Below the pieces are notes generated by a model. The model was not told where the DNA came from, searched no databases, and was given only the letters and a program-made list of their open reading frames with translations. The translations under genes were made by a program, and so were the position numbers. A DNA stretch of 63,204 nucleotides, from contig JASEIO010000002.1 of the NCBI GenBank assembly GCA_030017475.1, forward strand, positions 1 to 63,204, given 5' to 3'. Origin of the DNA: a bacterium. Its GTDB lineage: Bacteria; UBA9089; JASEIO01. This document shows, in pieces, positions 28,856-48,358 of this stretch. The first letter of the stretch is position 1. Each line of letters begins with the position of its first letter.

Positions 28856-29028
28856 CAATTACCTTCCTTTGCCTTAATATAGACATAGCAATCATTACAT
28901 CTATCCTTGTTATTTCTCTTGCAACATGGTAAATCGGTTGTCTCCCAACAATCTTTACCTGTTTTATAGGCAGGACACCTTAAATAATGACTTGCTGGAC
29001 AGGTTTGAATTTCATAACACCTTTTCAT
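28855..29028 (-). CDS. Unannotated Cys-rich small protein (57 aa, 8 Cys)
   Basis: Manual translation gives MKRCYEIQTCPASHYLRCPAYKTGKDCWETTDLPCCKRNNKDRCNDCYVYIKAKEGN. The start overlaps the HD-GYP stop (ATGA) and the stop overlaps the M50 start (TGATG). It exactly fills the gap between the two genes. Confidence 0.55.
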   Translation of the reverse strand: MKRCYEIQTCPASHYLRCPAYKTGKDCWETTDLPCCKRNNKDRCNDCYVYIKAKEGN

Positions 29029-31034
29029 ACCATTTCAACCTTTTCCTTCTCTTCCTCTTCTAAAATCTCTATGAAGGCATCTACAACTTGAGGATCATAC
29101 CTTCTTTCATTCCTCAATTCCTGAATAACCTTCTCTTTTGAAAGGGCCTTTCTATATACCCTATCTGATGTCATAGCCTCATATACATCTACTACTGCAA
29201 TGATTTTTGCTATTATATTTATCTCATCACCCTTTATCGAATCTGGATATCCTGTTCCATCCATCCTTTCATGATGATGCCTCACCCCTTTATACACCTC
29301 TTCTGGAAATTCTATTGGCTGCTTTTTCATCAATTCAACCCCATTTGATGGATGCCTTTTTATAATCTCCCATTCTTCATCATTCAATTCTCCTGGCTTT
29401 TGAAGAATATTATCTGGAATATGTATCTTCCCTATATCATGTAAGATTGCAGAAATACGTGTAGCCTCAACCATATATTCTTTTAAACCAAGCCATCTTG
29501 CAATCTTCTCTGCATACATTGCTACCCTTGATGAATGTCCAAATGTGTACTCATCCCTTGCTTCAAACGCAGAGGTTAAGGTGAAGATTATGTTACCCAT
29601 CTCCCTTACCTTCTCTTCGGCTTTATCATTAATTAAGCGAATATCTTCAATTGCAACCGAAAATGTGTTACCCAATGAAGAAAGGAAGGAAAGCTCCTCT
29701 AAGGTATAGAGATCACCAGTTGACTTCTCTCCAAGACCTAAGATGCCGATTAATTTCCCTCTAAAAAACGGAACAAACAAAGTAGCTTGAAGGTTCTGGA
29801 ATAAAGGCCTAATCTTGTAAGCCTGATCTTTAAGCGAAGGATTTTCATCAAGTTCTGCCAAAAGAAGTGGTCGTTTTTCACTTGAAAGATACCTGATCAA
29901 ACCATCATTTTCCTCTATCCTTACCTTTCTTGTTCCACTTTCATTTATCCCACTACAAAACGTAACCTTATACTCCCACTTTTTCTCATCCAATAACATT
30001 AAAGAGACACCTCTAACACCCATTGGTTGCTTAACCGAACTAACTATTAATGTAAAAAGCTCATCCAGACTAAAAATAGAAGATATGCTTTCACTTAACC
30101 TCTCCAAAAACTTCTCCCTCTCAAGAGACCTCCGATAAAAAATCCTATCAATCCAAGATTGGATCCACTCCCTTGCTGGCACAAGGAAAATAGCGATCAA
30201 GAACGCCATAAAAAGGCAAATAAAAAAGGTCTCAATCCCAGTAAGCTTTCTAATTGCCCTTTCTATACACAACATACCACCAAGAAAGAAAAATGTCATA
30301 AGGGCACTCACAATAACATAAGCCGTACTCCTTCTAATTACAACCTCGATATCCATCAGGTGGTATTTGATGATAGCATAGGCTATGATTATACCATAGA
30401 TAACCGTTGCTAAATAGGCAGAATAGACAGCTGGGTATATTTTCATTACCCCAGATGCCAAAAGAAAATTAGGGACACCTCCAAATATAACTATACATAT
30501 CCCACTGAATAGAAACTTCATACGGTTCTTCTCTATGGGAGAGGTTGTCGCCCTATATTTTCTATACAAAAGATAGGTTCCATATGTGAAAAAGAACCAG
30601 AAGAATAAAATGAAAAAGTAGTTTGTTAATCCTCCTCCTACAGGATAGTAGCCTCCATATACCTTGATAGCATCCTTTACAAAAAATCCTGAGTATGTAA
30701 GAAGTAATAGAATAAGACCACCAATATATCCGAAAAGGCGTAACACTTTTTTTATCTTAGTATAATCTCCAGTAACAGCTAACACAAACTGGTAGAAGGT
30801 TATAGGTATAAAAATAACACCTATACTTAAGGCTGTTAGCCAAATTATGGCATATTCTTTAACAGGAATAAGAAATCCTCCAAGGAGTCTAAAGGACCAA
30901 ATTGCTCCGCAAATGGCAAAATAACAAAATCTCTTATTTACTTCTCTCTTTGTGCCTTTAGAAAGTACAAAGATTCCAATGAATAAAGTCAAGATACCAG
31001 CAAAAAATGGGATGATAGAATGGATGATAATCAT
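29025..31034 (-). CDS. Membrane sensor: N-terminal 7TM region, GAF domain, HD-GYP c-di-GMP phosphodiesterase domain
   Basis: About 7 TM helices in the first 290 aa, then a central GAF-like region. The C-terminus carries HDIGKIHIP...HHERMDGTGYPD, so the HD and GYP motifs are intact. Confidence 0.85.
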   Translation of the reverse strand: MIIIHSIIPFFAGILTLFIGIFVLSKGTKREVNKRFCYFAICGAIWSFRLLGGFLIPVKEYAIIWLTALSIGVIFIPITFYQFVLAVTGDYTKIKKVLRLFGYIGGLILLLLTYSGFFVKDAIKVYGGYYPVGGGLTNYFFILFFWFFFTYGTYLLYRKYRATTSPIEKNRMKFLFSGICIVIFGGVPNFLLASGVMKIYPAVYSAYLATVIYGIIIAYAIIKYHLMDIEVVIRRSTAYVIVSALMTFFFLGGMLCIERAIRKLTGIETFFICLFMAFLIAIFLVPAREWIQSWIDRIFYRRSLEREKFLERLSESISSIFSLDELFTLIVSSVKQPMGVRGVSLMLLDEKKWEYKVTFCSGINESGTRKVRIEENDGLIRYLSSEKRPLLLAELDENPSLKDQAYKIRPLFQNLQATLFVPFFRGKLIGILGLGEKSTGDLYTLEELSFLSSLGNTFSVAIEDIRLINDKAEEKVREMGNIIFTLTSAFEARDEYTFGHSSRVAMYAEKIARWLGLKEYMVEATRISAILHDIGKIHIPDNILQKPGELNDEEWEIIKRHPSNGVELMKKQPIEFPEEVYKGVRHHHERMDGTGYPDSIKGDEINIIAKIIAVVDVYEAMTSDRVYRKALSKEKVIQELRNERRYDPQVVDAFIEILEEEEKEKVEMV

Positions 31035-31630
31035 CTATAGTCTCTTCCCTTAGCTAATACACCTTTTATAAAGTTTAAAGGTAGAAGGGCGTAAACCTCT
31101 TTTTTGTATTCAATATACTCTTTCCCAAATTTCTCAATCAGTGCTTTTTCTTCTAAGTATATCCTCCAGAGTGTTATTGGAAGATAGATCAGCCAGATGA
31201 GAAGAAGTGAATAATAGGAATTTGGTATAAGGGCAAGACCAGTCATTTCGATTAAAAGACATAACAAATGGGGGTGCCTCACATATCTATATGGACCTTC
31301 CTTTATCAACCTGTGATCTTTCTTTATCTCAATATAATGACTCCAATATTTACCCAACGATTTAATGACCCATTCTCTATTAAATATACCAAAAAAATAC
31401 ATAATAAAACCAGTGGAACAAATCGCTAAATTAACTCTTCGTCTAAAAAGAAGGTATTCAATTGCACATCCAATAAATAAAACCATATACAGTATAAACT
31501 GAATAGGATAAATCGACTTTGAATATATAACCCCCTTTTCTTCCTTATTTCTACTAGTTGCAGATCTTCTCATCTGCCTATAAATAAGGGATAGAAATAA
31601 GAAGGCTATATAAAAAAGAGTAAAATTCAC
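31031..31630 (-). CDS. ICMT/PEMT-family membrane carboxyl methyltransferase-like protein (copy 1)
   Basis: LIKEGPYRYVRHPHLL...YLEEKALIEKFGKEYIEYKKEV is the ICMT-type C-terminal motif. Polytopic. Paralog of 33048..33662. GTGA overlap with the upstream gene and ATGA overlap with the downstream gene. Confidence 0.7.
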   Translation of the reverse strand: MNFTLFYIAFLFLSLIYRQMRRSATSRNKEEKGVIYSKSIYPIQFILYMVLFIGCAIEYLLFRRRVNLAICSTGFIMYFFGIFNREWVIKSLGKYWSHYIEIKKDHRLIKEGPYRYVRHPHLLCLLIEMTGLALIPNSYYSLLLIWLIYLPITLWRIYLEEKALIEKFGKEYIEYKKEVYALLPLNFIKGVLAKGRDYR

Positions 31631-32046
31631 TCTAATCCCCCTTCGACCCTTTTTTTAACACATCTCAATGTATTATTACCTATTTTCTTTAAAATTCTAG
31701 CTACAATTGGCTCTAAAATAAGTTTACCTAACGATATCTTATAATTAAAATTATGAACTAAGGTCATTTTTGTTCCCTCAAGTGTCTCTTCAAACCTCCA
31801 TTCAGCTATTAAACCCCTTAAAGGACCTTCAAGCTGTTTAGATCTCATCAATCTATCTTTAATAGTAATAATAGACCTCCATTTAATCATTCCCTCTCTC
31901 TTAATCATTATTCTGTTTCCCTCTTTGCTAATAATATCCATTTTTCTATGAGATGACAAAAACTCAGGCCATCTTTCTACATCAGCCATCACCTGAAAAA
32001 CCTTATCAATATCTCCCTTGATCACAATTGAATTTTCAATATGCAA
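31627..32046 (-). CDS. SRPBCC (polyketide cyclase/dehydrase, START-like) protein (copy 1)
   Basis: 139 aa. SIVIKGDIDKVFQVMADVERWPEFL...LEGPLRGLIAEWRFEE. Clear paralog of 36078..36533. Apparent TTG start behind AAGGGGGA. Confidence 0.7.
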   Translation of the reverse strand: MHIENSIVIKGDIDKVFQVMADVERWPEFLSSHRKMDIISKEGNRIMIKREGMIKWRSIITIKDRLMRSKQLEGPLRGLIAEWRFEETLEGTKMTLVHNFNYKISLGKLILEPIVARILKKIGNNTLRCVKKRVEGGLE

Positions 32047-33047: not shown

Positions 33048-33662
33048 TTAAGATCCTTTACGAGATATCCTCTTCAAAGGTAAAAATGCATAGACCTCCT
33101 TTTTATAATTAAGGTATTCATCACCAAATTTCTCAATCATTGCTTTCTCCTCTAAATATGCCCTATAGATAACAAAAGGGATAAAAATAAACAAGGTAGC
33201 GATTAATGAATAATAGGCGTTAGGTATAATGGTAAGGCCAATTGTTTCAATTGTTACACAAAAGGATAATGGATGTCTCATATATCCATATGGACCACTC
33301 TTTATTAATTTATGATCTTCCATTATCTTAATGTCCGGACTCATATATTTCCCTAATGCAACCACTGCCTTTGCCCTAACTGGTATTACGGATACATACA
33401 TCAATAACCCTATTCCACTTAAGATCAAATTAACCCTGACCCGTGTAGATATGATGTATCTACAATAAAAGTATTCTAAGATTGCTCCAACAGCTATTAT
33501 AAGGTAAAGGGCAAGTAAGATGGGATATGTTAATCCTGCATAGACCTTCCCTTCATGTGGTTCAACCTCATAGGACTTGAGTAGTCTCCGTATTCGATAG
33601 ATAATAGATATAACAATAAAACCTATGTATAGTTGGGTAAAGTATTGATGGATAAGATTCAT
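33048..33662 (-). CDS. ICMT/PEMT-family membrane carboxyl methyltransferase-like protein (copy 2)
   Basis: LIKSGPYGYMRHPLSF...YLEEKAMIEKFGDEYLNYKKEV. Paralog of 31031..31630. The ORF-track GTG at 33671 was trimmed to ATG 33662, behind GAGGTGG. Confidence 0.7.
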   Translation of the reverse strand: MNLIHQYFTQLYIGFIVISIIYRIRRLLKSYEVEPHEGKVYAGLTYPILLALYLIIAVGAILEYFYCRYIISTRVRVNLILSGIGLLMYVSVIPVRAKAVVALGKYMSPDIKIMEDHKLIKSGPYGYMRHPLSFCVTIETIGLTIIPNAYYSLIATLFIFIPFVIYRAYLEEKAMIEKFGDEYLNYKKEVYAFLPLKRISRKGS

Positions 33663-33680
33663 CCATGCCACCTCTAATCT

Positions 33681-36038
33681 TTAAATATCCACATCTCTTA
33701 TAATTAAAACTGTATTTTTGCCACCAAATCCAAAAGAATTTGACACAGCTACCTTAATATTACTTTCACGTCCAACATTTGGAACATAATCAAGATCACA
33801 TTCAGGATCAGGATTTTCAAGGTTAATGGTGGGGTGAATGAAATTATTTTGCATTTCTAAGACAGAGGCTATTAACTCAATAGCCCCTGTTGCCCCTATT
33901 GAATGGCCAATCATAGATTTAATAGAATTTATAGGCAATTTATAGGCATAATCACCAAAAACTTGCTTGAGAACCTTAGTTTCTATCTTATCTCCTAATG
34001 GAGTAGATGAACCATGAGCACTAATATAATCTACATCTTCTATATTCAAATTGGCATCTTGTAAAGCCAATTTTATAGCTCGAGCTGCCTGTGTTCCATC
34101 AGGAGAAGGGGAAGTCATATGATAGGCATCTCCTGATACACCATAACCAACCACCTCTGCATAAATAGGAGCTCCTCGCTTTAGGGCATGTTCTAATTCC
34201 TCTAAGATTAATATACCTGCTCCCTCAGACAATACAAAGCCATCCCTTTCTCTATCAAAAGGACGGGATGCCTTCTCTGGTTCATCATTACGAGTGGATA
34301 AAGCCCTTATTGCCTGGAATGAAATAATAACAAGAGGTCTCATAGGGGCTTCAGTCCCACCTGTAACCATCAGATCAACTTCTCCATTCCTTATCTTATT
34401 AAAGGAATAGCCAATAGCATCTGCACCAGCTGTACATCCTGTGGAAATAGTGAAACTTGGTCCTTTTACACCCAAATTTATTGAAACCTCAGACGAAATA
34501 GCTCCAGCAAAAATAACTACAGATAGATAAGGGCTGACCCTCTCCGGTCCTTTCTCAAGATAGGTTTTATACTGGTCTTCTCCAAATCCCAATCCTCCTC
34601 CTCCTGCCCCAATAATAACTCCAATTCTGTGAGGATCAAGTTTCCTTATATCTTCTAAATTGGCATCTTTTAAAGCCATTTGAGCAGCTGCAATAGCAAA
34701 TTGGGTCTCTCTACCACTATGCCTTATCTTTTTTTTATCTATCCAATTTAAGGGATCAAACTCAGTATTTCGGATCTCTCCTCCAATCTTTACCTTTAAA
34801 TCGGATGTATCAAAACTCTCTATTCTTCTTATACCAGATCTACCTTCCTTAACTGCTTCCCAAAATGCATCCTTTCCGATTCCAATTGGGGTGATTACAC
34901 CTAATCCAGTAATTACTACCCTTCTTTTTATCCCCTCTTTTTCTCTTTTAACAGAGGTAAATGTCCTTATCCTATCTTCTCCTTTCTTTTTTGCCCAAGA
35001 GAAAGCCTCCTCAACCCTTTTTATTAACATTTCAGGGGTTTTAATCTCTTTAGAGAGACTTGCTACCCCAAAGGTGGAGGTTATAGATATATTTAGATCT
35101 TTATCTTTCAAGAACACCCAACCCTTTATAATCTTCCTCAATCTTTCTGCTACCTCATAGGTCCTTTCCTCTGGTGTATTTGGTAGAATAATCATAAACT
35201 TCTTCCCGCCTACCCGGGTTAATATCTCGGATTTTCTAATATTTTTTAAAATGAGGCAAGCAAATTCCTTTAGAACCTGATCCCCAATTAGATGACCATA
35301 GGTCTGATTAATCTCTTCAAGACGGTCTATATCAAGCAATATCAAGGAAAGGTTCGAATTATATCTTTCTGCTCGGGCTATTTCTCCCTCCAAGCGAGCA
35401 ATCAGGTATCTTTTATTATGTAATGATGTCAAATCATCAATCATCAATAATCCATCCTTTTCTTCAATTAGCTTTATGAATCTATCTGCACTTTCCTGGA
35501 GACGATAGTAGCGAGAGATGGTTTCTGAGAAAGGCTTAATTAATGCCATTAACATCTTCCCACCGATAAGCAACTGGTCTCTTGATACCCTCCTAATCAA
35601 CTGCAAATTCATCAATAGATCATTCTCCGAAACCCCAATTTCTTTAGCAAATCTCCGACATCTTTCATAAACTGCCTCCTCTTCTAAAACCCCACCCATT
35701 AAAATAGCTCCTATTGGCTTTTCCTGAAGAACCAATGACACGGAAAAGTTGAGTAAACCTGCAGGACATTTAAAAATAGAAAAACCTTCTTCTATACTCT
35801 CTGAAGAAAAACAATTCATTCTGTAGGATTGGCAGCACCTTATTTGGCCAATCTTTGATGACTGGATAAGACGACACGCCTTGTGCAGATGCTGAAAACC
35901 AGCTATAAACCTTCCATCTTTATCTACAAACTGGGCCTTTGTGCCAGTTATCTCATGACACACATCCTGAATATTTTCCCATTGATTAAGTAAGTTTACC
36001 AAATCTGATAGATCAACAGGAGGGGTTTCTTTAGTCAT
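33681..36038 (-). CDS. Three-domain fusion: PocR-like sensor, degenerate GGDEF (GGKKF), KAS I/II-type beta-ketoacyl synthase
   Basis: PocR pattern (FKCPAGLLNFSVSLVLQEKPIGAILMGG). GGDEF fold (DDLTSLHNKRY...LLDIDRLEEINQTYGHLIGDQVL...RKSEILTRVGGKKF). Full ketosynthase (RRVVITGLGVITPIG...TGCTAGADAIGY...SAHGSSTPLGD...MIGHSIGATGAIE). The ATG at 36038 is preferred over the GTG at 36050. Confidence 0.85.
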   Translation of the reverse strand: MTKETPPVDLSDLVNLLNQWENIQDVCHEITGTKAQFVDKDGRFIAGFQHLHKACRLIQSSKIGQIRCCQSYRMNCFSSESIEEGFSIFKCPAGLLNFSVSLVLQEKPIGAILMGGVLEEEAVYERCRRFAKEIGVSENDLLMNLQLIRRVSRDQLLIGGKMLMALIKPFSETISRYYRLQESADRFIKLIEEKDGLLMIDDLTSLHNKRYLIARLEGEIARAERYNSNLSLILLDIDRLEEINQTYGHLIGDQVLKEFACLILKNIRKSEILTRVGGKKFMIILPNTPEERTYEVAERLRKIIKGWVFLKDKDLNISITSTFGVASLSKEIKTPEMLIKRVEEAFSWAKKKGEDRIRTFTSVKREKEGIKRRVVITGLGVITPIGIGKDAFWEAVKEGRSGIRRIESFDTSDLKVKIGGEIRNTEFDPLNWIDKKKIRHSGRETQFAIAAAQMALKDANLEDIRKLDPHRIGVIIGAGGGGLGFGEDQYKTYLEKGPERVSPYLSVVIFAGAISSEVSINLGVKGPSFTISTGCTAGADAIGYSFNKIRNGEVDLMVTGGTEAPMRPLVIISFQAIRALSTRNDEPEKASRPFDRERDGFVLSEGAGILILEELEHALKRGAPIYAEVVGYGVSGDAYHMTSPSPDGTQAARAIKLALQDANLNIEDVDYISAHGSSTPLGDKIETKVLKQVFGDYAYKLPINSIKSMIGHSIGATGAIELIASVLEMQNNFIHPTINLENPDPECDLDYVPNVGRESNIKVAVSNSFGFGGKNTVLIIRDVDI

Positions 36039-36077
36039 ATTATTCACCACCCTTTGTTTGAAATCCTTAAAGAATCT

Positions 36078-36533
36078 TCATCCTCTACGTCCTATCTGAA
36101 GACCTTCCTCTACCTTCCTCTTGACTCCCTCTAAGGTCTGGGTAGCCATCTTCTTTACAATTCGCGAAACAATCAGTCTTCCAATCAGATTTCCAATCAA
36201 AGGAACCTTCTTATATTCAAAGTCATGTGTTAAAACTATCCTTGTCCCATCATCTATTTCCGCAAACTTCCATTCTATCTTCATACCTTTTAGCGGACCC
36301 TCTAACTGCTCTGCCTTAATTAACCTTTTATCCTTATCCACAAAAACACGGGACCTCCACTTATAGCCAGCTTCACTTTCTCGCTCAACTATCATTTCCG
36401 GTCCCTCTTTACTTAAAATCCTTACCTCTTTATAGGTAGGTATAAATTCAGGATATCTTTCCACATCCGAAGATATTTCAAAAACCTCATCCACATTTCC
36501 TTTAATCACGATTGTATCTTCTGTATGTATCAT
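36078..36533 (-). CDS. SRPBCC (polyketide cyclase/dehydrase, START-like) protein (copy 2)
   Basis: TIVIKGNVDEVFEISSDVERYPEFI...LEGPLKGMKIEWKFAE. Paralog of 31627..32046. The ATG at 36533 lies 1 nt after the cyclase stop, behind GAGGAG. Confidence 0.7.
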   Translation of the reverse strand: MIHTEDTIVIKGNVDEVFEISSDVERYPEFIPTYKEVRILSKEGPEMIVERESEAGYKWRSRVFVDKDKRLIKAEQLEGPLKGMKIEWKFAEIDDGTRIVLTHDFEYKKVPLIGNLIGRLIVSRIVKKMATQTLEGVKRKVEEGLQIGRRG

Positions 36534-36534
36534 T

Positions 36535-37362
36535 TTACTCCTCAATTATTGCAACTGGTCTTACCCAACCAGCACCTGCCCTCTCAATATTTACTGGAAA
36601 ACAAACTACCTTAAAACCAAAAGGCTTGGGAAGCCGGTCTAAATTTCCCATCTTTTCTATATGACAATATTCCTTCTCCCTTCCAGCAAAATGGGCCGGC
36701 CAAAGGTATCTTTTATCTCGAGTTCTTATATAATCCGTAAACATATTCACCCAAGGCCGATCAAAACCAAATGCATCAATCCCTATTATCTTCACACCTT
36801 GTTCTACTAAGAATAGGGTCGCCTCCTTTGACATCCCAGGTTGAAAAAGAAGATAGTCCCTATCTTCTAAATATTTATCCTGTCCAGTTCTAATAAGCAC
36901 GATGTCATATGGCTTAATTTTGTAATCTATTCTCTCTAATGCCTCTTTTATATCATCCGCCGTTATAAACTCCCCTGGTTTTTTATGCGTTAAGTCAAGA
37001 AGAACACCATCTGCGAAACACCATTCAAGTGGAACCTCCTGGATGGTCTTTGAGGGTTTTCCACAAGAGCGGGGACCAAAATGCCATGGGGCATCAAGAT
37101 GTGTTCCAGCATGGGTATCCGTCTTTATCACCTCTAAGGCTATACCCATTCCATTAGGGAAGTTTTTTGCTGTAATTCTGTATCTTCCTACTAAATAAAG
37201 GAAGAAATTCTTAACATGATCAAAAAACGATCTTCCTTTACAAAGCACTGCCCCTAAACCAAGAAGTAACGCCCCTCTTTTATGGTCTATATATTTAATC
37301 TTGGGTGGGTCAGGCTCATGTCCACCACTACGTAAAGGAACACTTAAATCAATGAGTTTCAT
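36535..37362 (-). CDS. Cyclase-family protein (kynurenine formamidase-like fold)
   Basis: TDTHAGTHLDAPWHF metal-binding motif and overall size. The ORF-track TTG start was trimmed to ATG 37362, behind GGAGGTGG. Confidence 0.75.
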   Translation of the reverse strand: MKLIDLSVPLRSGGHEPDPPKIKYIDHKRGALLLGLGAVLCKGRSFFDHVKNFFLYLVGRYRITAKNFPNGMGIALEVIKTDTHAGTHLDAPWHFGPRSCGKPSKTIQEVPLEWCFADGVLLDLTHKKPGEFITADDIKEALERIDYKIKPYDIVLIRTGQDKYLEDRDYLLFQPGMSKEATLFLVEQGVKIIGIDAFGFDRPWVNMFTDYIRTRDKRYLWPAHFAGREKEYCHIEKMGNLDRLPKPFGFKVVCFPVNIERAGAGWVRPVAIIEE

Positions 37363-37442
37363 CCTTTTACCACCTCCCAAAATTAGAGCTGATTAGCTAC
37401 ATCAAGATTAAGCTGCCAATTATTTAAGCCAGTACCTTAAGT

Positions 37443-39644
37443 TTACCCTCTATCCCGGAAGTTGTCAATAATATAGTTTAGTTGTTCCTGTTTTGTGGAA
37501 ATCTTTCCATCAATTTTAGCGTATAACAACTCCTTTACAATCTCTTTATATAGTGGTCCAGGTTTTATTCCCAGTCTTTTTAAATCCTCTCCCGAAACAT
37601 CTACACTTACATTTCTCAAATCACCAATGAATTTTATAATTCGTTCCTTTATTAAATCACCACTTTTATATCTAACCTCTGCTTTGGAAATCATGAATAT
37701 AAGTACTTCTATTGGAATGCCTTTAAGCATCTTATAGATAGAACTTGCAGAAAGCTCTTCTTTTTGCAAGGCAATAATCAGTTTATCGCTCATATGCTTG
37801 GCAAGTAACACCTTCTCATTTTGTGATTTAGTAAACTTAAACCTTTTTATCACATCCCGGAGCTCCTCTAAATTTAACCTATCTACTAAACATAGAAAAT
37901 AGATCAGGAAACATTCTATTTTTTCTTCAATAACCACTTGTAGATTAAAGATGGTATCTTGAATGCTACGGAACATTAAAGCAAGTTTTTTCGTAACCCT
38001 TATCTTTGGATGTATATATTTAAGTACTCCAAACTCAGCCAATCGTGAAATAGCTGGGAAAGGGTCCTCCTCAGATAATACTAAAATCAATTCATCCCGG
38101 AATCTCTCTTTACCCAAATACTTAAATACTTCGGATTTTACAGCTTTATTGATAAGTGAAACCGTCTCTTCATCAAGTAGGAAATTGTGTCTTTTTTCAA
38201 ACCTCACTGCACGAAAGATTCGGGTTGGATCATCATAAAAACTCAAATTATGCAACACCTTAATGATTCTTTCTTTAAGATGTATCTGCCCTCCAAAAAA
38301 ATCTATCAAATTGCCAAAATATTTTCTATTAAGCTGAACAGCCATAGCATTGATAGTAAAATCTCGCCTATACAAATCCTCTTTTATTGTACCATAGGTA
38401 ACTATTGGCAATACAGCAGGTCTCGTATAGATCTCTTTCCGAGCGGATGCTACATCGAGTTTAAAACCCCAAGATAAGGTAACCACTGCAGTTTTAAACA
38501 TCTTATGAACCTTTGCCTTCCCCCCTGAACATGCCGCAAAAACCCGAGCAAATCTAATTCCATCACCATCTACCACAATATCTATATCAAAATTCTCTTC
38601 CCCTAATAACAAATCCCTTACAAATCCACCAACCACATATGTTGGATAATTCAAAGAATCTGAAACACGGGATATTTCCCGAAATAGACTCTTAATCTTT
38701 TTAGGAAGTCTTTCCATTAGATCCTTAACATTTTGGGTTTCAAAAAGTATGTTTAATAATCTATCCTCTATTTCTTTCAAATCCCGTTTTAAAATAGTAG
38801 TTGATGCAGCTCCGCTATGCCCCCCTCCATTAAATCGTGAAAGCACCTTTCTAACATCCACCTCTTTCTTTCTTGATCTGGCTATTAGATGGATCTTCCC
38901 ATCCACCTCTATTATAGTAAATAAAGCATCGGGCTTTTCAATGTCCATTATTTTATGAACTACGACTGCTAAATCAGGAATGTAATTTGAAATTTTGGTG
39001 GAGGCGACAGCTACCCAAGCCCCATTTATAAAATGGCACTTTAGATTATGTAACAGCTCATCAAGCAGCGAAACCTGCTCTTTGGTTAATTCCTGATTTG
39101 CAAAGCGAGCTACCAGGTTTAAATCAGCATTACACTTTAGTAGATAAGCCACTGCCTCAAGATCTTTTGGAGTGGTGGTAGGAAAGGTAAGGCAGCCTGT
39201 ATCAGAATAGATACCAAGGCAAAATATAGTAGCTTCCATAGGGGTAATACTTAAATCCCGTGATCTTATCAAATCCAACAGAATAGTAGCTGTTGCTCCA
39301 AGTTCTTCTGTAACCATTATATCTCCTTTAATATCGTTTGCCTTCGAAGGATGATGGTCATAAATATAGATAGGAATTCTTTTTTCAAGTAACTCTTTAA
39401 ATTTACCTATTCTACCTGGAAGCCTTGTATCCACAATAATAACCTTTTTTACCCTATCTATTTCTATATCCTTATGTTTCTCTATATTCGGAAGATGATG
39501 ATTGTAAACTTTTATAAAGTCTTTTACCCCACGTTCTGCATTTCCTGGTAAAACCAGGTGTGCCTTTGGGTATAATTTCTTTGCTGCTAATAAACTTGCC
39601 AAGGCATCAAAATCGGCATTAGTATGAGTAACAATAATCTCCAC
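37443..39644 (-). CDS. cca: DHH/DHHA1 phosphoesterase domain fused to a tRNA nucleotidyltransferase (CCA-adding/poly(A) polymerase family)
   Basis: N-terminus VTHTNADFDALASLLAAKKLYP (DHH) and GGGHSGAAS (DHHA1). The C-half has VVGGFVRDLLLG...DIDIVV and RRDFTINAM head-domain motifs. GTG start. Confidence 0.8.
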   Translation of the reverse strand: MEIIVTHTNADFDALASLLAAKKLYPKAHLVLPGNAERGVKDFIKVYNHHLPNIEKHKDIEIDRVKKVIIVDTRLPGRIGKFKELLEKRIPIYIYDHHPSKANDIKGDIMVTEELGATATILLDLIRSRDLSITPMEATIFCLGIYSDTGCLTFPTTTPKDLEAVAYLLKCNADLNLVARFANQELTKEQVSLLDELLHNLKCHFINGAWVAVASTKISNYIPDLAVVVHKIMDIEKPDALFTIIEVDGKIHLIARSRKKEVDVRKVLSRFNGGGHSGAASTTILKRDLKEIEDRLLNILFETQNVKDLMERLPKKIKSLFREISRVSDSLNYPTYVVGGFVRDLLLGEENFDIDIVVDGDGIRFARVFAACSGGKAKVHKMFKTAVVTLSWGFKLDVASARKEIYTRPAVLPIVTYGTIKEDLYRRDFTINAMAVQLNRKYFGNLIDFFGGQIHLKERIIKVLHNLSFYDDPTRIFRAVRFEKRHNFLLDEETVSLINKAVKSEVFKYLGKERFRDELILVLSEEDPFPAISRLAEFGVLKYIHPKIRVTKKLALMFRSIQDTIFNLQVVIEEKIECFLIYFLCLVDRLNLEELRDVIKRFKFTKSQNEKVLLAKHMSDKLIIALQKEELSASSIYKMLKGIPIEVLIFMISKAEVRYKSGDLIKERIIKFIGDLRNVSVDVSGEDLKRLGIKPGPLYKEIVKELLYAKIDGKISTKQEQLNYIIDNFRDRG

Positions 39645-40716: not shown

Positions 40717-41721
40717 CTACTCAACCTTTACTACATCATTGATCTTAAAACCTTGCCCTGATTTAATAACAGAGATTGAATATCCATCTTCTACATCTAT
40801 AACTTGAATTTCTCCAGATCTCTTCATTTCAAACCCTAAACCTTCCCCTGTTAAAGGATCAATTATCTCTTCGCCCAATGAATAGACAGTGAATATATCA
40901 CCAACCTTTGTTCCAACAGATGATCCACAATTTATATAAAATTTGTCTCCCTCAATCTTTATAATCCTTCCTTTTAAAAGAACTTTCTTTACATCTTCTC
41001 CATATTCCTTCTTTTTAGCCTTTTCGACCTCTTTACGCTCCCCATAATAAGGATAATGAGCCCTTCTAAAAGCCTCAGTAACTTTTTTAACAGCTTGATT
41101 TATTGCAAGTCTTGTTGCCTTTCCTATAGTTGTGCGGTTAAACTCCTTATCTCCAAAATCCATTCTTTGCAACTTAGTTAAATCAGACTCCGCAACTCTA
41201 CCTCTCCTCCTTAATTTCTTTGACACTTGTCCTTCAGCAGTTTCAGTGGCAAGGATATTTCCAGTCCCTGGATCAATTATCTTTATATCTAACTTAACCT
41301 TAGCTACCTCTGGCACTACCCTAACACGTCCCCTAACTTGCCCTTCCTGTTCCTTTATCTCAAATTCATCCACATCCCCTGTAATAATTGCATCCACTCC
41401 CAATATCTCTTTTACTATAGCAGCATATTGAGAGATAGCCTCTGGAGAAAATCCTAAGGCCTGCCCTTTAAATCTTTCCCTTTTTTCTATAACTACAAAG
41501 TCCTCTGATTCTACTAAAGCCTCAGTTAACTCATTAGCCATTCCTTTTCCTATATCCCAAAAGCTTGAGAATGTTCTATCTGTTTTATCTTCGAAAGCAA
41601 TTACAGTAACTAACCTCTTAGGAATTTCCTGCTCTATTCTTCTACCTCTAACACCAACTCTCACGCAACCAACAACCATTATTAAAATTAATAAATTGGC
41701 AATAAATATCTTTCGATTCAC
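40717..41721 (-). CDS. Lipoprotein, CsgG/LpoB-like N-domain plus C-terminal beta domain
   Basis: Lipobox (IMVVGC). VTVIAFEDKTDRT...GMANELTEALVESEDFVVIEKRE...AIITGDV resembles CsgG-family lipoproteins. The family assignment is tentative. Confidence 0.45.
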   Translation of the reverse strand: MNRKIFIANLLILIMVVGCVRVGVRGRRIEQEIPKRLVTVIAFEDKTDRTFSSFWDIGKGMANELTEALVESEDFVVIEKRERFKGQALGFSPEAISQYAAIVKEILGVDAIITGDVDEFEIKEQEGQVRGRVRVVPEVAKVKLDIKIIDPGTGNILATETAEGQVSKKLRRRGRVAESDLTKLQRMDFGDKEFNRTTIGKATRLAINQAVKKVTEAFRRAHYPYYGERKEVEKAKKKEYGEDVKKVLLKGRIIKIEGDKFYINCGSSVGTKVGDIFTVYSLGEEIIDPLTGEGLGFEMKRSGEIQVIDVEDGYSISVIKSGQGFKINDVVKVE

Positions 41722-41834
41722 ACAACACCTCCTTTAGCAGGGTCGGCGTATCGTCTTTACCCCCACCAAAAATCCAAAATCCTAAGTACCAAATCGCAAA
41801 CAGATTCAAAATTCCAAATTCTAAACCTTCTTTG

Positions 41835-41856
41835 TTTTGGTCATTGGAATTTAGAT
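41835..41856. repeat. TTYGGTCATTNGRATTT motif, copy 2
   Basis: TTTTGGTCATTGGAATTTAGAT, inside a 234-nt non-coding region rich in GGAATTT/AGATTT-like degenerate repeats. Confidence 0.5.
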
Positions 41857-41916
41857 ATTGAGATTTGTTTGAAATCTGTTATTTGGAATTTACTGATTCT
41901 GTATACTCTGAAAAAC

Positions 41917-41935
41917 CTCTGTGGATTCTGTGGCT
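41917..41935. repeat. CACGGAT-family repeat, inverted and diverged copy
   Basis: CTCTGTGGATTCTGTGGCT is the reverse complement of AGCCACAGAATCCACAGAG. Compare AGCCACGGATTATCACGGATG at 13281. Confidence 0.5.
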
Positions 41936-41955
41936 AAAAGAAAATTCCTGGACTA

Positions 41956-42582
41956 TCAAGTTAAGAATGGATTGGTCAACCTTTCCTTTTCAATGGTAGA
42001 TTTCTCACCATGTCCAGGGTAGATAATAATTCCGCCATCTAAAATCAACAGCCTTGTCTTTATAGACTTAATTAAGGCCTCATGCGATCCATAAGGAAAG
42101 TCAGTCCTTCCAACACCTGAAGCAAAAAGGGTATCTCCAGTAAACAAAAACCTATCTATTCTCAAACAGATACTTCCAGGGGTGTGTCCAGGGGTATGAA
42201 TAACGTTTAAATTTATCCTACCAACTTTGATTACATCCTCATCATCTAATAATCTATCTGCCTTATCTATGGATATATCTCTCATAAAAAGGCTTGATAA
42301 ATTAAGCACTGGATCTGTAAGTAATTTTTCATCTTCCTTATGGAGCAGAACCTCGCAATCTGTAGTCTTTTTGACTGAAGAATTAGCTCCTATGTGATCA
42401 ATATGTCCATGGGTATTGATAATATAGGTCAGGCGGAGATCATTCTCTTTTAATATCCTTAAAATTAAACCTGAGTCTCCACCAGGATCAATAACTACTG
42501 ATTCTTTAGTCTCATTACATCCAATTATATAGCAATTGGAAGAAAAATCCGAAACCACTAATCTTTTTATAAAAACCTTCAT
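41956..42582 (-). CDS. MBL-fold metallo-hydrolase (glyoxalase II-like)
   Basis: HTHGHIDHIG (HxHxDH) and TPGHTPGS motifs. 208 aa. Confidence 0.8.
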   Translation of the reverse strand: MKVFIKRLVVSDFSSNCYIIGCNETKESVVIDPGGDSGLILRILKENDLRLTYIINTHGHIDHIGANSSVKKTTDCEVLLHKEDEKLLTDPVLNLSSLFMRDISIDKADRLLDDEDVIKVGRINLNVIHTPGHTPGSICLRIDRFLFTGDTLFASGVGRTDFPYGSHEALIKSIKTRLLILDGGIIIYPGHGEKSTIEKERLTNPFLT

Positions 42583-42584
42583 AC

Positions 42585-42602
42585 CTTAGCTTATGGCTTA
42601 TG
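42585..42602. repeat. AAGCTRTAAG-family half element (diverged)
   Basis: CTTAGCTTATGGCTTATG lies in the gap between the dtd stop and the MBL hydrolase start. Confidence 0.5.
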
Positions 42603-42622
42603 CCCCACAATTTAATGTGTAG

Positions 42623-43060
42623 TTACGTTTCAAGTATTAAGGTAACTGGGCCATCATTATGGATCGTAACAAGCATCCTGGCTTGAAATTGACCAGTTTT
42701 AACTGAAACTCCAATGTCTTTCATTGCCCCCACAAAGCAAGTGTACAAATCTTGTGCCTTATCATGCTTCGCTGCCCTTGTGAAATCAGGTCTTCTTCCT
42801 TTTCTGCAATCACCATATAATGTAAATTGAGAAACAATCAATACCTCACCTTGAACATCCAACAAAGACAAATTCATTTTATTATTTTCATCTTCAAAGA
42901 TGCGTAAATTAGCAATCTTTTGAGCCAGGTAGGTCGCTTCTTTCTTACTATCTGAAACCCCAACTCCAAGCAGAACAACCACTCCTTTTCCTATCGTTGA
43001 AATCATTCTACCCTCAACAAACACCTTAGCTTCTCTAACTCTCTGTACCACTGCTTTCAT
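42623..43060 (-). CDS. dtd: D-aminoacyl-tRNA deacylase
   Basis: MKAVVQRV...VSQFTLYGD...GRRP.F...GPVT is the Dtd signature. The ORF-track GTG start at 43090 reads through the CACGGAT repeat, so the start was trimmed to ATG 43060. Confidence 0.9.
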   Translation of the reverse strand: MKAVVQRVREAKVFVEGRMISTIGKGVVVLLGVGVSDSKKEATYLAQKIANLRIFEDENNKMNLSLLDVQGEVLIVSQFTLYGDCRKGRRPDFTRAAKHDKAQDLYTCFVGAMKDIGVSVKTGQFQARMLVTIHNDGPVTLILET

Positions 43061-43077
43061 AATCCCAAGAAAAATTA

Positions 43078-43108
43078 ACCACGGATTCACACGGATGATT
43101 TACAAAAC
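43078..43108. repeat. Dispersed CACGGAT-type repeat, copy 2
   Basis: AACCACGGATTCACACGGATGATTTACAAAA; compare 13281-13310. Confidence 0.7.
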
Positions 43109-43190
43109 TCAATAGAGTAAAGAGGATTAGGGTTAAGAAGCCTGTTTTTCTTTTTTTAGCAATACCACATTTTTTGTAATTTTGCAAGCA

Positions 43191-43955
43191 TTATTTATTA
43201 TAGGTTTCTTCAATAAAGCCAATTGCTTTTTTGGCAATAATTTTCCCTGCTTCATCTTCAGGAATAATCACTTCATCAGCACCAGCTGATCTTACAACTC
43301 GAAGATATCTCGATTTCCCAACCCTTGTAATTATCCTTACCTCTGGGTTAAGATTTTTGGCTGTAATTGTAATGTATAGGTTATCCGGATCGTTATCGAT
43401 CAATACCAAAATCCCTTTTGCCTTTATGATTTGAGCTTGAAGTAAAACCCCTCTTCTTCTTGCATCTCCATTTATAACCAATTTTCCTTCTTCGAGTAAG
43501 GATTTAACTAAGCTTTCATCATTCTCAATAACCACAAATGGGATCTTATTTTCTGTAAGATTTTCTACAACAGTCCTTCCAACTTGTCCATAACCACAAA
43601 TAATTAAATGATTTTCGAGTTTCTCCAATCTAAGTTGATTTTTCATTTTTAACCACACCCCTTTTCCTTCCCCTTTAAAGAAACTGCGAAAAAATCTTTC
43701 AACTATCCAAATCCCTGAGAAGTATATTCCAAGGGTAACAAAAACAGAAAAGATTTTAGTTATTGACTGGATTTGGGCATTTGCAATGGCGGATCGATTA
43801 ACTAACCAGAATAATGCATCAATGAAAGAGATATGTTCCAAATGCATAAAGCCAAGTATAGATATAGATAGAAAGCACAACAGGAATAAGACTGGTAGTA
43901 GAAGAATCTTAATCAAAAACCATAAAGCTACGTTAAATGCAAATCTACTTTTCAT
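43191..43955 (-). CDS. Ion-channel-like membrane protein with an RCK/TrkA-N domain and a degenerate selectivity filter
   Basis: TM segments, then a pore-helix-like FIDALFWLV followed by NRSAIANAQI where TVGYGD is expected. Rossmann motif LIICGYGQVGRTV (TrkA-N). The ATG overlaps the upstream stop (ATGA). Confidence 0.65.
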   Translation of the reverse strand: MKSRFAFNVALWFLIKILLLPVLFLLCFLSISILGFMHLEHISFIDALFWLVNRSAIANAQIQSITKIFSVFVTLGIYFSGIWIVERFFRSFFKGEGKGVWLKMKNQLRLEKLENHLIICGYGQVGRTVVENLTENKIPFVVIENDESLVKSLLEEGKLVINGDARRRGVLLQAQIIKAKGILVLIDNDPDNLYITITAKNLNPEVRIITRVGKSRYLRVVRSAGADEVIIPEDEAGKIIAKKAIGFIEETYNK

Positions 43956-45922
43956 CTTATATCTGTCGGTTCATCTTCTTTCCAAAGGGGCTTAGGCCTG
44001 GAGACCTCTTTATGGATAGCATAGATAGTAATATTCTCATCTTCATAAAAGATATCCATATCTCGATGATAGATAGAATAAACTTGACACCATTCATTAA
44101 TCCTCCTTTGGAAATCATCCCTCCATCTATAATCAATTTCAATGCCTCCTTCTTTAACCCTAAACCCTTTTTTTTCAGTAAATATGAATATATGGGGGAT
44201 CTCTATGGGTAAGTCATCCTGAGGATTGTATCTACTCAAAAAATCTTCGATATGCATATGCCATCCTTTCTTTAAACACAATGGATACTCCTCAGTAGTC
44301 GATACAATCAACCATTCGTATGGAGTATACATTTTAGAAATCCTCAAATAACCTCTTATCATCCCATCGTATTCCATCTTAAAGGATTCAGGTGGCTTTC
44401 CCGGGAAAGCGATCCCCAATAAAAGGATTACGGAAATTGCAGCTCCAAACTGTCTATAGTTACCTATTAATATCCTACCTAAGATCTTAGAAGTTAAGAT
44501 ATAATAAAATAGTCCTAATGGTATGGAAATTAGTAAGCTTAAGAAATGACCTGTACTATAAGGGCAAACCACATGCCTTATTCCAAAGAAATTAGCCTTA
44601 TATTGAAAGAATAAGAAGAGTAGAAAAATAGTAAAGCTGAGGAAATCAAATTTATCTATCCTATCTTTGATAGTTATACCATATCCTATTAAAAAAAGAT
44701 TAATTGCTAAGATTACATACAATAAACCACTTAAATCTAAGGCCCCTGCCCTGAATTGAGGAGTAAATAGAGTAAAAAACCCAAGTGCTGATTCGTGCAA
44801 TTTATATCCAGATAAAAATCCTAATAAAATAGATAAATGCCCTAACAACAATGATGCTACGAATGCCAAAAGTACAGATATCAAAGTCTTTTTTGTCCAT
44901 AGACGGGCTATTATCCCTGATAGAAGAATAGAGACCATTCCAATCATAGCCATTAATCCAACTATAGAATGTACACGAAATATGATTACTAATCCTTCGC
45001 ATGAAAGCAAAAGGTATCTCGCTTTTCGCATGACTATATATCGTAGCATGAAGTATAAAGTAGGAAGTAAAAAAAGGGCTCCAAACTCTTGAGGTAAGGT
45101 TGTTGTTTGTCTATAAAGACCAAGGGGTAGTTGCTCCGCAATTGTTCCCCCATAGATAAATATACCATAAATAAATGAGGAAATAAGTGAGGCACCTTTA
45201 CTCCCTGTAAGCCTGTTAGTTATCCAATAACAAGATAAAACAGTTAATAGTGATATAAAAGGCCCCATAAATTTAAAGATATACACTGGATCAAGATATG
45301 TAAAAAAGTGGATGGAAGACAAAAAAGAGGCAAATCCCTCTGGATGAATCCCTGTGAGAAACAATCTATTCATCTCCATATCTTTCATTACCTTTATCCA
45401 TACATATGGATCTGAGGTTCCTAAAGCCTCATGCCGGAAAGAGTCATAAAACCTAAGATAGGCTGCATAACCCATTACTGGAATAAATGATAGAAGGTAT
45501 ATTAGATTGGATCTATCGCATGACCTTATTCTATCAAGGACCCTACCTTTTTTTTCGATTAGATATTCCTTGGATACCTTGACCAAATCTACTCCTTGAT
45601 CCAAAACATCAAGAAAAGAACTAACAACCCTTAAAAAGAAATTAGACAACCTCTCAAAGAAGGCCCATTTACGTCTATAAATTATAAAGCCAATACCTAC
45701 TAAGAGATAACCACCATATAAAGATAGCGGTTCATAGATGTGGAGAAGAACAAGAAAATGAACAAGAAGTAAGGTAATAAAGGTCATATGGGTTAAATTA
45801 ACAAAGAATTTATCTAAAATAGAATCCCCCTTTCTTTTTTTAATAAATAGACTGGGAAAAAGTATGTATACTAATAAGAAGAGAGATATAATCTTACTTA
45901 CAACGAATAGATTAGAGATCAT
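43952..45922 (-). CDS. Large polytopic membrane protein (656 aa), possibly a GT-C-fold glycosyltransferase, with a soluble C-terminal domain
   Basis: At least 12 predicted TM helices by eye. The loop YLRFYDSFRHEALGTSDPYVWIKVMKDM resembles the first-loop acidic motif of ArnT/PMT/STT3-like enzymes. The functional call is weak. Confidence 0.35.
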   Translation of the reverse strand: MISNLFVVSKIISLFLLVYILFPSLFIKKRKGDSILDKFFVNLTHMTFITLLLVHFLVLLHIYEPLSLYGGYLLVGIGFIIYRRKWAFFERLSNFFLRVVSSFLDVLDQGVDLVKVSKEYLIEKKGRVLDRIRSCDRSNLIYLLSFIPVMGYAAYLRFYDSFRHEALGTSDPYVWIKVMKDMEMNRLFLTGIHPEGFASFLSSIHFFTYLDPVYIFKFMGPFISLLTVLSCYWITNRLTGSKGASLISSFIYGIFIYGGTIAEQLPLGLYRQTTTLPQEFGALFLLPTLYFMLRYIVMRKARYLLLSCEGLVIIFRVHSIVGLMAMIGMVSILLSGIIARLWTKKTLISVLLAFVASLLLGHLSILLGFLSGYKLHESALGFFTLFTPQFRAGALDLSGLLYVILAINLFLIGYGITIKDRIDKFDFLSFTIFLLFLFFQYKANFFGIRHVVCPYSTGHFLSLLISIPLGLFYYILTSKILGRILIGNYRQFGAAISVILLLGIAFPGKPPESFKMEYDGMIRGYLRISKMYTPYEWLIVSTTEEYPLCLKKGWHMHIEDFLSRYNPQDDLPIEIPHIFIFTEKKGFRVKEGGIEIDYRWRDDFQRRINEWCQVYSIYHRDMDIFYEDENITIYAIHKEVSRPKPLWKEDEPTDIR

Positions 45923-45925
45923 CTA

Positions 45926-46765
45926 TTACTCTCCAAATTCAAGATTTACCATATATAATTTACTATGCGTAAGACTCGAAACACTAGGTATAAAACCAAA
46001 TGATCTTGCCCTTCTATAAGCAAATGTAATTAAATCCAAATCCGTCTCTTCGGTATAATCCAGGGTAAAGACATCGAATAAGGGATTATCAGTCCAACCC
46101 CTTATACTATTTATTCTATTTGCCTGGGAAGTAGTATAGGAAAGTTCAGAAGGCTTGAGCTTCTTCAAGGTAGAGCTGAAGCTTTCATACATAATAGCGT
46201 TAATGAAAGGTGTAATTTCCTGTAAAACTATCCATCCATTATTGACCAAGAGATACTCTTGTGGATATGTCTCACGGATCTTCCTTATCAGTTCAATCAT
46301 ACCAGGCTTAAGGATTTTCTCCTTTATATCCTCAGGATAAAGATGTGGATAAAGAACAGTATCCAGAAAGGCACCGCTGCAACCCAAGTCTTCTACAATA
46401 GTAGCCATCTTTTCATAAATAACATATTGTTGCCATCCTTTATCTTTAGGATTTACAAAATAGGATCCCCAATCCTTATGCCTATCAGGTTTGCCATCTG
46501 GTCCAGGTATATCACATCCTACGCCTGTAAAATAATCTAAATACCAAGATGCATATCCACCTGGCCCTTTTCCATTATGAACCTTTAATGGATAATCTTC
46601 TCCAATTGAGAGATAACCCAATACTTTGGTTTTATTGGTTTTTAAAAAGGCTATCTCCTGGGGGGTGTAATGCGCAGGTTGAATAATTACTAAGTCAAAT
46701 TTACAAAGGTCTCTTATTCTTCCTTTACCATAATAAACACAATAATTTCTAATATCTGACATCAA
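45926..46765 (-). CDS. GH114-like glycoside hydrolase (PelA hydrolase-domain-like / endo-alpha-1,4-polygalactosaminidase family)
   Basis: FDLVIIQP...VLGYLSIGE...WGSYFVNPKDKGWQ...GCSGAFLDTV follows the TIM-barrel GH114/TM1410 pattern. Located downstream of pelF-pelG. Confidence 0.6.
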   Translation of the reverse strand: MMSDIRNYCVYYGKGRIRDLCKFDLVIIQPAHYTPQEIAFLKTNKTKVLGYLSIGEDYPLKVHNGKGPGGYASWYLDYFTGVGCDIPGPDGKPDRHKDWGSYFVNPKDKGWQQYVIYEKMATIVEDLGCSGAFLDTVLYPHLYPEDIKEKILKPGMIELIRKIRETYPQEYLLVNNGWIVLQEITPFINAIMYESFSSTLKKLKPSELSYTTSQANRINSIRGWTDNPLFDVFTLDYTEETDLDLITFAYRRARSFGFIPSVSSLTHSKLYMVNLEFGE

Positions 46766-48351: not shown

Positions 48352-48358
48352 ATAATTC

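Follow-up and report, generated by a model that had tools for sequence, protein, structure and literature searches.

A FabF-type ketosynthase fused to PocR and degenerate GGDEF domains in a small protein family of uncultivated bacteria

The fusion gene and its domains

The DNA analysed here, referred to as the window, is a stretch of 63,204 nucleotides covering positions 1 to 63,204 of contig JASEIO010000002.1 (bacterial assembly GCA_030017475.1). On its minus strand lies a single gene that encodes, in order, a PocR sensor domain, a degenerate GGDEF domain and a FabF-type ketosynthase (KS), and this fusion sits within an operon of putative lipid-modifying and cyclic di-GMP (c-di-GMP) signalling genes. 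The fusion open reading frame (ORF) and its parts are as follows.

33681..36050, minus strand: PocR-degenerate GGDEF-KS fusion ORF, uninterrupted, 789 amino acids when counted from a GTG codon
35526..35990, minus strand: PocR sensor domain, residues 21-175 (Pfam PF10114, 88 bits against a cutoff of 23.9, model positions 5-158 of 162)
35445..35525, minus strand: linker from PocR to GGDEF, the C-terminal part of a long helix modelled over residues 157-197 (AlphaFold2 secondary structure), at the position of a signalling helix
34974..35444, minus strand: degenerate GGDEF domain, residues 203-359 (Pfam PF00990, 129.5 bits against a cutoff of 23.8; alignment with PleD)
35226..35237, minus strand: RKSE at the position of the RxxD inhibitory site (I-site), residues 272-275, with partner arginines R279 (PleD R366) and R303 (PleD R390)
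35196..35210, minus strand: GGKKF where GG(D/E)EF would stand, residues 281-285, with lysines instead of the glutamates that bind metal and substrate
33816..34925, minus strand: FabF-type KS domain, with ketoacyl-synt at residues 376-622 and Ketoacyl-synt_C at residues 630-745, and with Cys539, His679, Lys711, His716 and Phe775

The reading frame is continuous, with no stop codon or frameshift at either domain junction, which bears out the original prediction of one ORF of 785-789 amino acids. The longer value corresponds to the GTG start and the shorter to an ATG at 36038, and 785 amino acids is the probable true length, because this ATG is preceded by the Shine-Dalgarno-like sequence AAGGGTGG and aligns with the N-terminus of the closest homolog, P0001 (homologous proteins and their loci carry P and L numbers throughout). 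The three modules that had been proposed were all recovered by profile search, in which each of the four domains of the fusion scored above its curated Pfam cutoff, including the two KS halves (ketoacyl-synt, PF00109, 182 bits, model positions 2-252 of 252; Ketoacyl-synt_C, PF02801, 133 bits, model positions 1-119 of 119).

Two results agree with the prediction that the C-terminal module is a complete FabF/FabB-type condensing enzyme. It matches the full NCBIfam fabF equivalog model TIGR03150 (positions 1-407 of 407) with 560 bits against a cutoff of 493.75, and in an alignment with FabF of T. thermophilus, to which it is 51% identical, the TGCTAG, AHGSST, KSMIGHSIGA and FGFGG contexts are all present, so that the Cys-His-His triad, the catalytic lysine and the gating phenylalanine are intact. 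The other sequence statements made beforehand also proved correct, including the GGKKF at nucleotides 35196-35210 and, in the PleD alignment, the spacing of RKSE. The reported change of ND to NQ is present as well, as IND reads INQ in the alignment, but it carries little meaning, because the equivalents of the guanine-contacting Asn335 and Asp344 (GGDEF positions are numbered after PleD) are both retained in the window protein, as is that of Arg366.

The N-terminal PocR domain belongs to a class established as sensors of small hydrocarbon derivatives (PMC13602510, PMC1592074), and the long helix that joins it to the GGDEF domain takes the place of the signalling helix (S-helix) found in sensor proteins (PMC1592074). 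A confident AlphaFold2 model of the PocR domain was obtained, at a predicted local distance difference test value (pLDDT) of 88.6; its fold search returned weak GAF-, IclR- and CodY-like matches only, and comparison of the PocR region with the PDB by sequence gave no meaningful match. Cys59, Cys72 and Cys95 are invariant in the family described below, and the motif that reads CHAGL in most members reads CPAGL in the window (residues 95-96, nucleotides 35763-35768). As a side observation, the three invariant cysteines and His96 could form a metal or redox site, in which case the window protein would miss one ligand.

A small family from uncultivated lineages

The same domain order is found in 14 other full-length proteins, from independent assemblies of four sources (NCBI, JGI, ENA and Logan). 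A word-indexed search returned seven four-domain proteins of 781-812 amino acids, from different assemblies and 42-58% identical to the window protein, while an eighth match, P0010, is a short gene call of an 816-amino-acid four-domain ORF in a metagenome-assembled genome (MAG; locus L005). An exhaustive search of 1.84 billion cluster representatives with a profile of the N-terminal module gave about eight matches to the whole module, six of them four-domain proteins and two fragments; a further representative, P0179, matches the PocR part only and is a PocR-KS protein without a GGDEF domain. Among 185,579 species-representative genomes, a scan with a single conserved peptide pattern, the result of which is to be read as a lower bound, located one true locus and one additional, distant PocR match in Roseburia. 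Metagenome contigs scanned with the N-terminal alignment yielded only four distant PocR-only matches, and an exact look-up of the window fusion protein in public assemblies gave no match on record.

The family is thus small, and its known members are confined to uncultivated lineages (Desantisbacteria, Poribacteria and others). The host of the window is itself an uncultivated flagellated diderm, and the nearest named relatives of the tryptophanyl-tRNA synthetase encoded in the window, about 64% identical, belong to Ratteibacteria and Desantisbacteria. In public records, members from Poribacteria and Desantisbacteria MAGs are annotated merely as "beta-ketoacyl-ACP synthase II" (for example MBI5417711.1). 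No published description of PocR-, GGDEF- or PilZ-ketosynthase (FabF) proteins or related architectures turned up in full-text literature searches aimed at them. The original claim that no such ketosynthase fusion had been described therefore stands with respect to the literature, but the fusion is not unique to the window and a small family was already present in the databases.

These homologs also settle whether the fusion is an artefact, that is, a chimeric assembly or a missed stop codon or frameshift joining separate genes. We regard this as a negligible prospect, as we found no point in its favour, the reading frame is continuous, and the same domain order recurs in the 14 other full-length proteins from four assembly sources, with 42-58% identity where this was computed. 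Because the architecture is conserved across independent assemblies, chimeric assembly is excluded at the domain junctions, where it or a hidden stop codon had been the concern.

In a bootstrapped neighbour-joining tree of KS domains, the PocR-containing KSs are monophyletic, which points to a single origin of the PocR-KS fusions (92% bootstrap). P0179 is nested inside this clade, and a secondary loss of its GGDEF domain is therefore indicated. The family falls apart from a group that contains FabF of T. thermophilus and P0016, although this separation itself was not bootstrapped. P0016 is a standalone relative with a 55% identical KS and is the housekeeping FabF of a plsX-fabH-fabD-fabG-acpP-fabF-rnc cluster.

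Conservation within the fusion was counted over 15 full-length family members. The KS is the most constrained part, with a mean pairwise identity of 53% compared to 36% for the sensor domains, and C539, H679, K711, H716 and F775 are conserved in all 15 apart from H679Y in P0002. In the GGDEF domain, by contrast, an intact GG(D/E)EF is found in none of the 15. Where PleD has GGEEF the window has GGKKF, and other members have SGDKF, EVDIF, DEAKF, DEDRF, DNSRF and further variants; the first metal-binding aspartate (D327) is often lost. To judge from these motifs, the GGDEF domain has lacked catalytic activity from the origin of the family onwards, which extends the earlier assignment of the domain as non-catalytic from the window to all 15 members.

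At the I-site, R359 and R390 are each kept in 14/15 members and R366 in 15/15; R359 and R390 rank in the top 13 of the 157 GGDEF domain positions by conservation, and R359, the arginine of the RxxD position, stands at the exact spacing, five residues upstream of the GGDEF position. Position 362 is acidic in 14 of the 15, being glutamate in 11 (the window included) and aspartate in 3. Among the nucleotide-contacting positions, the D344 equivalent is aspartate in 13/15 and glutamate in the remaining 2, and neither the N335 and K332 equivalents nor the Mg-binding acids show conservation across the family. The retained I-site arginines are the signature that would be expected of a receptor-type GGDEF domain, with the important caveat of Glu362 in 11/15.

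The operon, its relatives and neighbouring genes

The fusion is part of a minus-strand operon whose genes mostly overlap or are separated by tiny gaps. In the direction of transcription, its order is PF04199 cyclase, SRPBCC, KS fusion, ICMT, three small ORFs, SRPBCC, ICMT and HisKA_7TM-GAF-HD-GYP. Besides the fusion, the genes are the following.

36535..37380, minus strand: PF04199 "putative cyclase", a metal hydrolase resembling kynurenine formamidase, its HxGTHxDxPxH motif intact, upstream in the operon and overlapping the next gene
36078..36545, minus strand: SRPBCC/Polyketide_cyc protein, ending 27 nt short of the KS fusion
33048..33671, minus strand: ICMT/PEMT-family membrane methyltransferase, beginning 9 nt after the end of the KS fusion and conserved in L016, L017 and L018
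32102..33022, minus strand: three small ORFs (94, 87 and 88 amino acids) between ICMT and SRPBCC, each hydrophobic at the N-terminus and with a tail that is helical and charged
31627..32046, minus strand: second SRPBCC paralog
31031..31630, minus strand: second ICMT-family methyltransferase, with 4-nt overlaps with both neighbours
29025..31034, minus strand: predicted HisKA_7TM-GAF-HD-GYP c-di-GMP phosphodiesterase, with HDIGK and HHERMDGTGYP intact

For the three small ORFs no Pfam family was matched, and the syntenic loci L016 and L018 have no counterpart of them. Scans for promoters and terminators gave no more than shuffled sequence would. Neither Rfam nor tRNA models matched anywhere in the window, and from the Rfam result it follows that there is no c-di-GMP riboswitch in it. 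We found no fab gene among the window ORFs scanned, a set that leaves out seven ORFs in 55064-63202.

Related loci fall into several arrangements.

L016 and L017 (Desantisbacteria, PocR-KS): cyclase, KS, SRPBCC, ICMT, SRPBCC, ICMT, 7TM-GAF-HD-GYP
L018: cyclase, SRPBCC, KS, then Toluene_X and ICMT
L019 (Poribacteria): cyclase, weak SRPBCC match, KS
L021 (sensor-less relative P0015): KS, SRPBCC, HisKA_7TM
L001, L005, L011 and L020 (third subclade): proB, proA, KS fusion, HEAT protein, 7TM-GAF-HD-GYP, then 7TM-GAF-GGDEF proteins
L002: HD_5 protein upstream; directly after the KS, a HisKA_7TM-GAF histidine kinase

The cyclase is conserved upstream of the KS in L016, L017, L018 and L019, and an SRPBCC gene adjoins the KS in these four (weak match in L019) and in L021. 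A FadL/Toluene_X channel is also encoded in L016, the longer contig of the L016/L017 pair. The most consistent neighbour of the KS family is the HisKA_7TM-GAF-HD-GYP gene, which is also present in L001, L005, L011, L016, L017 and L020, and a HisKA_7TM sensor of some kind lies near the KS in L001, L002, L003, L005, L011, L012, L016, L017, L020 and L021. Every neighbouring HD_5 protein that was aligned has the canonical HD...HHExxD/NGxGYP motifs, and GGEEF cyclases with an intact motif, predicted to be active, are found nearby in L001 and L011. In the subclade of L001, L005, L011 and L020, a HEAT-repeat protein of about 200 amino acids always lies between the KS fusion and the 7TM-GAF-HD-GYP gene.

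A separate KS clade with 100% bootstrap, found in Elusimicrobiota and other MAGs, consists of fusions to PilZ (P0017-P0020) or to a receiver (REC) domain (P0021-P0023). The PilZ motifs RxxxR and [DN]xSxxG are present in three of the four PilZ-KS proteins. One locus of each type is detailed here; the acyl carrier protein (ACP) that follows PilZ-KS or REC-KS carries a DSF rather than a DSL motif.

L003, 10001-11997, PilZ-KS: dedicated ACP, NAD(P)-binding protein, HisKA_7TM kinase and a response regulator-HD-GYP protein
L012, 10001-12282, REC-KS: kinase, response regulator, ACP, 4HBT thioesterase, PlsC-type acyltransferase and an SRPBCC-dehydrogenase fusion
L012, further genes: HisKA_7TM sensor (a HisKA_7TM-GAF-HATPase protein, the kinase being separate), HD-GYP protein, and lipid glycosyl- and acyl-transferases

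Like the PocR-KS proteins, these are FabF-like KSs with an N-terminal signalling input, at loci with HisKA_7TM and HD-GYP proteins, joined at the REC-KS locus by an SRPBCC fusion. They differ in forming a separate clade and in having a dedicated ACP, to which the REC-KS locus adds a thioesterase and an acyltransferase nearby. As read from the domain assignments, the input domain that a KS carries corresponds to the kind of output of the sensors encoded beside it: c-di-GMP enzymes accompany a degenerate GGDEF or PilZ domain, and kinases accompany REC. The PilZ-KS/REC-KS family appears to be undescribed. A single superclade uniting PocR, PilZ and REC fusions, which looked plausible in the first neighbour-joining tree, was not supported on bootstrapping (6%), and the clades are treated here as separate. 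P0008-P0014 (about 840-910 amino acids) proved not to be sensor fusions but to consist of two KS domains in tandem; the catalytic cysteine is retained in the first and missing from the second, as in a chain-length factor (CLF), so that these proteins are single-chain KS/CLF-like fusions.

Several other genes of the window deserve mention in their own right. A Pel-type exopolysaccharide locus occupies 40717-51284 on the minus strand, with PelF at 48359-49855 (NF038011, 187 bits against a cutoff of 100), a weak, sub-threshold PelG-like match at 46777-48468 (24 bits against a cutoff of 29), a GH114/GH66-like protein at 45926-46765, a CsgG-like lipoprotein at 40717-41721 and an OEP/HlyD pair at 49866-52322. 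A 656-amino-acid ORF at 43952-45922, with no family or PDB match, might be a PelD/PelE-like component of this locus. Pel synthesis is a classic c-di-GMP output. Directly upstream of the KS operon, a 733-amino-acid protein (37443-39644, minus strand) combines a DHH/DHHA1 N-terminus with a CCA-adding/poly(A)-polymerase head and RNA-binding domains. An unusually long FapA of 1024 amino acids, with three FapA_N and two beta-solenoid matches, is encoded at 10152-13226 on the minus strand, beside a flagellar gene set at 949-8633 (a 675-amino-acid flagellin, FliW, FlgK and FlgN). A DUF2194/DUF2334 protein at 52693-55059 on the plus strand has a Por_Secre_tail-like end (28.2 bits for the whole protein, no single stretch being significant), a segment that hints at type IX secretion in this uncultivated lineage.

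Proposed function and comparison with known systems

We hold with moderate confidence that the fusion is an active FabF-type enzyme that would be gated allosterically by a ligand of its PocR domain and probably by c-di-GMP, and that it forms the core of a small lipid-modifying operon. The best-supported reading of the gene neighbourhoods gives the KS this core role in two subclades only. The regulatory module would comprise the PocR sensor, the long helix and a GGDEF domain that is unable to make c-di-GMP and that keeps its I-site arginines. The protein is probably a dimer, given that KS enzymes function only in that state and that sensor-helix-GGDEF modules also work in pairs. A small hydrophobic or hydroxylated ligand on PocR, and probably c-di-GMP at the I-site-like surface, would reposition the pair of GGDEF domains, and this movement would open or block the condensing enzyme. 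The operon (PF04199, SRPBCC lipid-binding proteins, KS and ICMT, with a FadL-type channel in related loci) would use the general ACP of the cell to synthesise or alter a hydrophobic molecule that derives from fatty acids and is probably methylated, while the HisKA_7TM-GAF-HD-GYP phosphodiesterase would set the local c-di-GMP level, making the KS fusion the effector of a c-di-GMP module. The original prediction of a signal-gated carbon-carbon bond-forming step in lipid or polyketide synthesis fits the conserved cyclase, SRPBCC, ICMT and 7TM-GAF-HD-GYP operon, and the gating itself we infer.

Several observations weigh against this mechanism. The window PocR has proline at the position of His96, which is histidine in 13/15 members and proline in the window and one other. 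Structure prediction gave no support for allostery, as the full-length AlphaFold2 model was unreliable in its KS part and domain packing (predicted template-modelling score 0.34) and its fold search re-found FabF structures only. The window and the PocR-KS loci L001, L002, L005 and L011 encode no thioesterase or reductase and, by tblastn, no ACP-like ORF, and the subclade of L001, L005, L011 and L020 is entirely without cyclase, SRPBCC and ICMT genes. The canonical I-site aspartate is replaced by glutamate in the window and in 11/15 members overall, and to our knowledge no RxxE site for c-di-GMP has been demonstrated. P0179, nested within the clade, has no GGDEF domain and yet retains the same operon, and P0015 has no sensor domain at all and still has SRPBCC and HisKA_7TM neighbours; these two gene contexts indicate that nucleotide sensing is not essential to the system.

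The main alternative, which we consider possible though doubtful, is that PocR provides the sole signal input and that the dead GGDEF domain binds no nucleotide, surviving only as a spacer that promotes dimerisation and passes the signal from the helix to the KS dimer. The RxxE in 11/15 members, the lack of conservation at N335 and K332 (the guanine and phosphate contacts) and P0179, which dropped the domain and has the same operon, all speak for a spacer. A passive spacer would not, however, be expected to hold R359, R366 and R390 among its most conserved positions while its catalytic site decayed freely; HD-GYP and GGDEF enzymes persistently adjoin the gene, and the separate KS clade bears a canonical c-di-GMP receptor in PilZ. 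The suggestion that the domain is a PelD-like c-di-GMP receptor therefore remains plausible on account of the three conserved arginines, and is weakened by the glutamate at the RxxD aspartate in 11/15 and by the GGDEF loss in P0179. It is rather unlikely that the protein is instead a housekeeping or second bulk FabF with added regulation, which would adjust the acyl-chain length or the fluidity of the membrane when solvents, alcohols or lifestyle signals call for it, with no dedicated metabolite. The KS does exceed the FabF equivalog cutoff and shares 55% identity with P0016 of a canonical fab cluster, no dedicated ACP is nearby, and one subclade is without any biosynthetic neighbours; against this, the gene lies outside a fab cluster, two subclades show tight linkage to cyclase, SRPBCC and ICMT, and the neighbour-joining tree sets the family apart from P0016 and T. 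thermophilus FabF, a separation that was not bootstrapped.

That the KS is non-enzymatic here, acting as an acyl-ACP- or lipid-binding sensor or as the scaffold of a signalling protein, is very unlikely. The surrounding signalling genes and the one subclade with neither ACP nor tailoring enzymes would suit such a role, but the catalytic residues are conserved in the most constrained region of the protein, and no output domain would be left, as the GGDEF domain is dead and both DNA-binding and kinase domains are missing. A more elaborate form of the gated-enzyme mechanism is improbable as it stands: the operon would be a self-contained lipid-signal circuit of an undescribed kind, in which a methylated, hydrophobic fatty-acid-derived molecule would be made by the gated KS, the PF04199 hydrolase, SRPBCC carriers and ICMT-family methyltransferases, exported over the outer membrane through the FadL-type channel of related loci and sensed by HisKA_7TM-GAF-HD-GYP and/or PocR, with feedback via c-di-GMP onto the KS. 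Such a circuit would turn a fatty-acid synthase (FAS) condensing enzyme into a direct c-di-GMP effector, through the degenerate GGDEF domain here and through PilZ in the separate PilZ-KS family, and would amount to a new chemistry of signalling among uncultivated candidate phyla.

The conserved sensor-KS family, together with the separate PilZ/REC-KS clade, points to direct post-translational control of lipid carbon-carbon bond formation by second messengers. If this is true, lipid chemistry would be a new class of c-di-GMP output. The HisKA_7TM sensors and the ICMT/SRPBCC operons, which are poorly understood, would gain a testable function, and a ketosynthase that is gated by a ligand in nature would become available for engineering. 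The reach is specialised for now, as the family is small and confined to uncultivated lineages.

Among known enzymes, the window KS resembles FabF/KAS II (T. thermophilus 1J3N, E. coli 1KAS) in both thiolase-fold halves, the triad, the lysine and the gating phenylalanine, and differs in its 375-residue N-terminal sensor module, the lack of a fab cluster and of an adjacent acpP, and its placement in a clade of its own with 92% support. Type II aromatic polyketide synthase (PKS) clusters combine KS-alpha/CLF, ACP, an SRPBCC aromatase/cyclase and further cyclases. The window is similar in that its KS gene lies beside a "Polyketide_cyc" SRPBCC and a PF04199 "cyclase", but membership of this class was rejected, as there is a single KS of FabF type rather than KS-alpha, no second KS-like window ORF, no CLF and no ACP.

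With respect to the sensor module, PelD and PopA are catalytically dead GGDEF proteins that bind c-di-GMP at the RxxD I-site. The fusion family shares with them a dead active site and the conserved I-site arginine R359 with its partner R390, and binding is predicted here by analogy; it differs in that the I-site aspartate is mostly glutamate and in that the partner is a fused condensing enzyme rather than a polysaccharide synthase complex or a proteolysis adaptor. In Caulobacter PdeA (CC3396), GTP bound by a degenerate GGDEF domain acts as an allosteric activator of the EAL enzyme that follows in the same chain. The direct placement of a degenerate GGDEF domain N-terminal to an enzyme in one polypeptide is common to both, as is the D344 equivalent (Asp 13/15, Glu 2/15), whereas the fusion family has no conserved N335, K332 or Mg-binding acids, which makes a GTP site doubtful, and its output is a KS rather than a phosphodiesterase. 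The PocR regulators (Salmonella PocR, E. limosum MtaR) and PocR-helix-output sensors share the N-terminal PocR, the long helix and an output module, but the output of the fusion is a lipid or polyketide enzyme and not a DNA-binding, kinase or active cyclase domain.

Control of enzymes by a degenerate GGDEF or a PilZ domain has precedents in PelD, PdeA and BcsA. Type II FAS condensing enzymes are controlled by transcription, by acyl-ACP feedback and by intrinsic properties such as the temperature response of FabF; we know of none that is controlled by fused sensor domains. All parts of the fusion come from well-known families, and what is new is the regulated output, a type II FAS-type ketosynthase in a conserved, uncharacterised operon.

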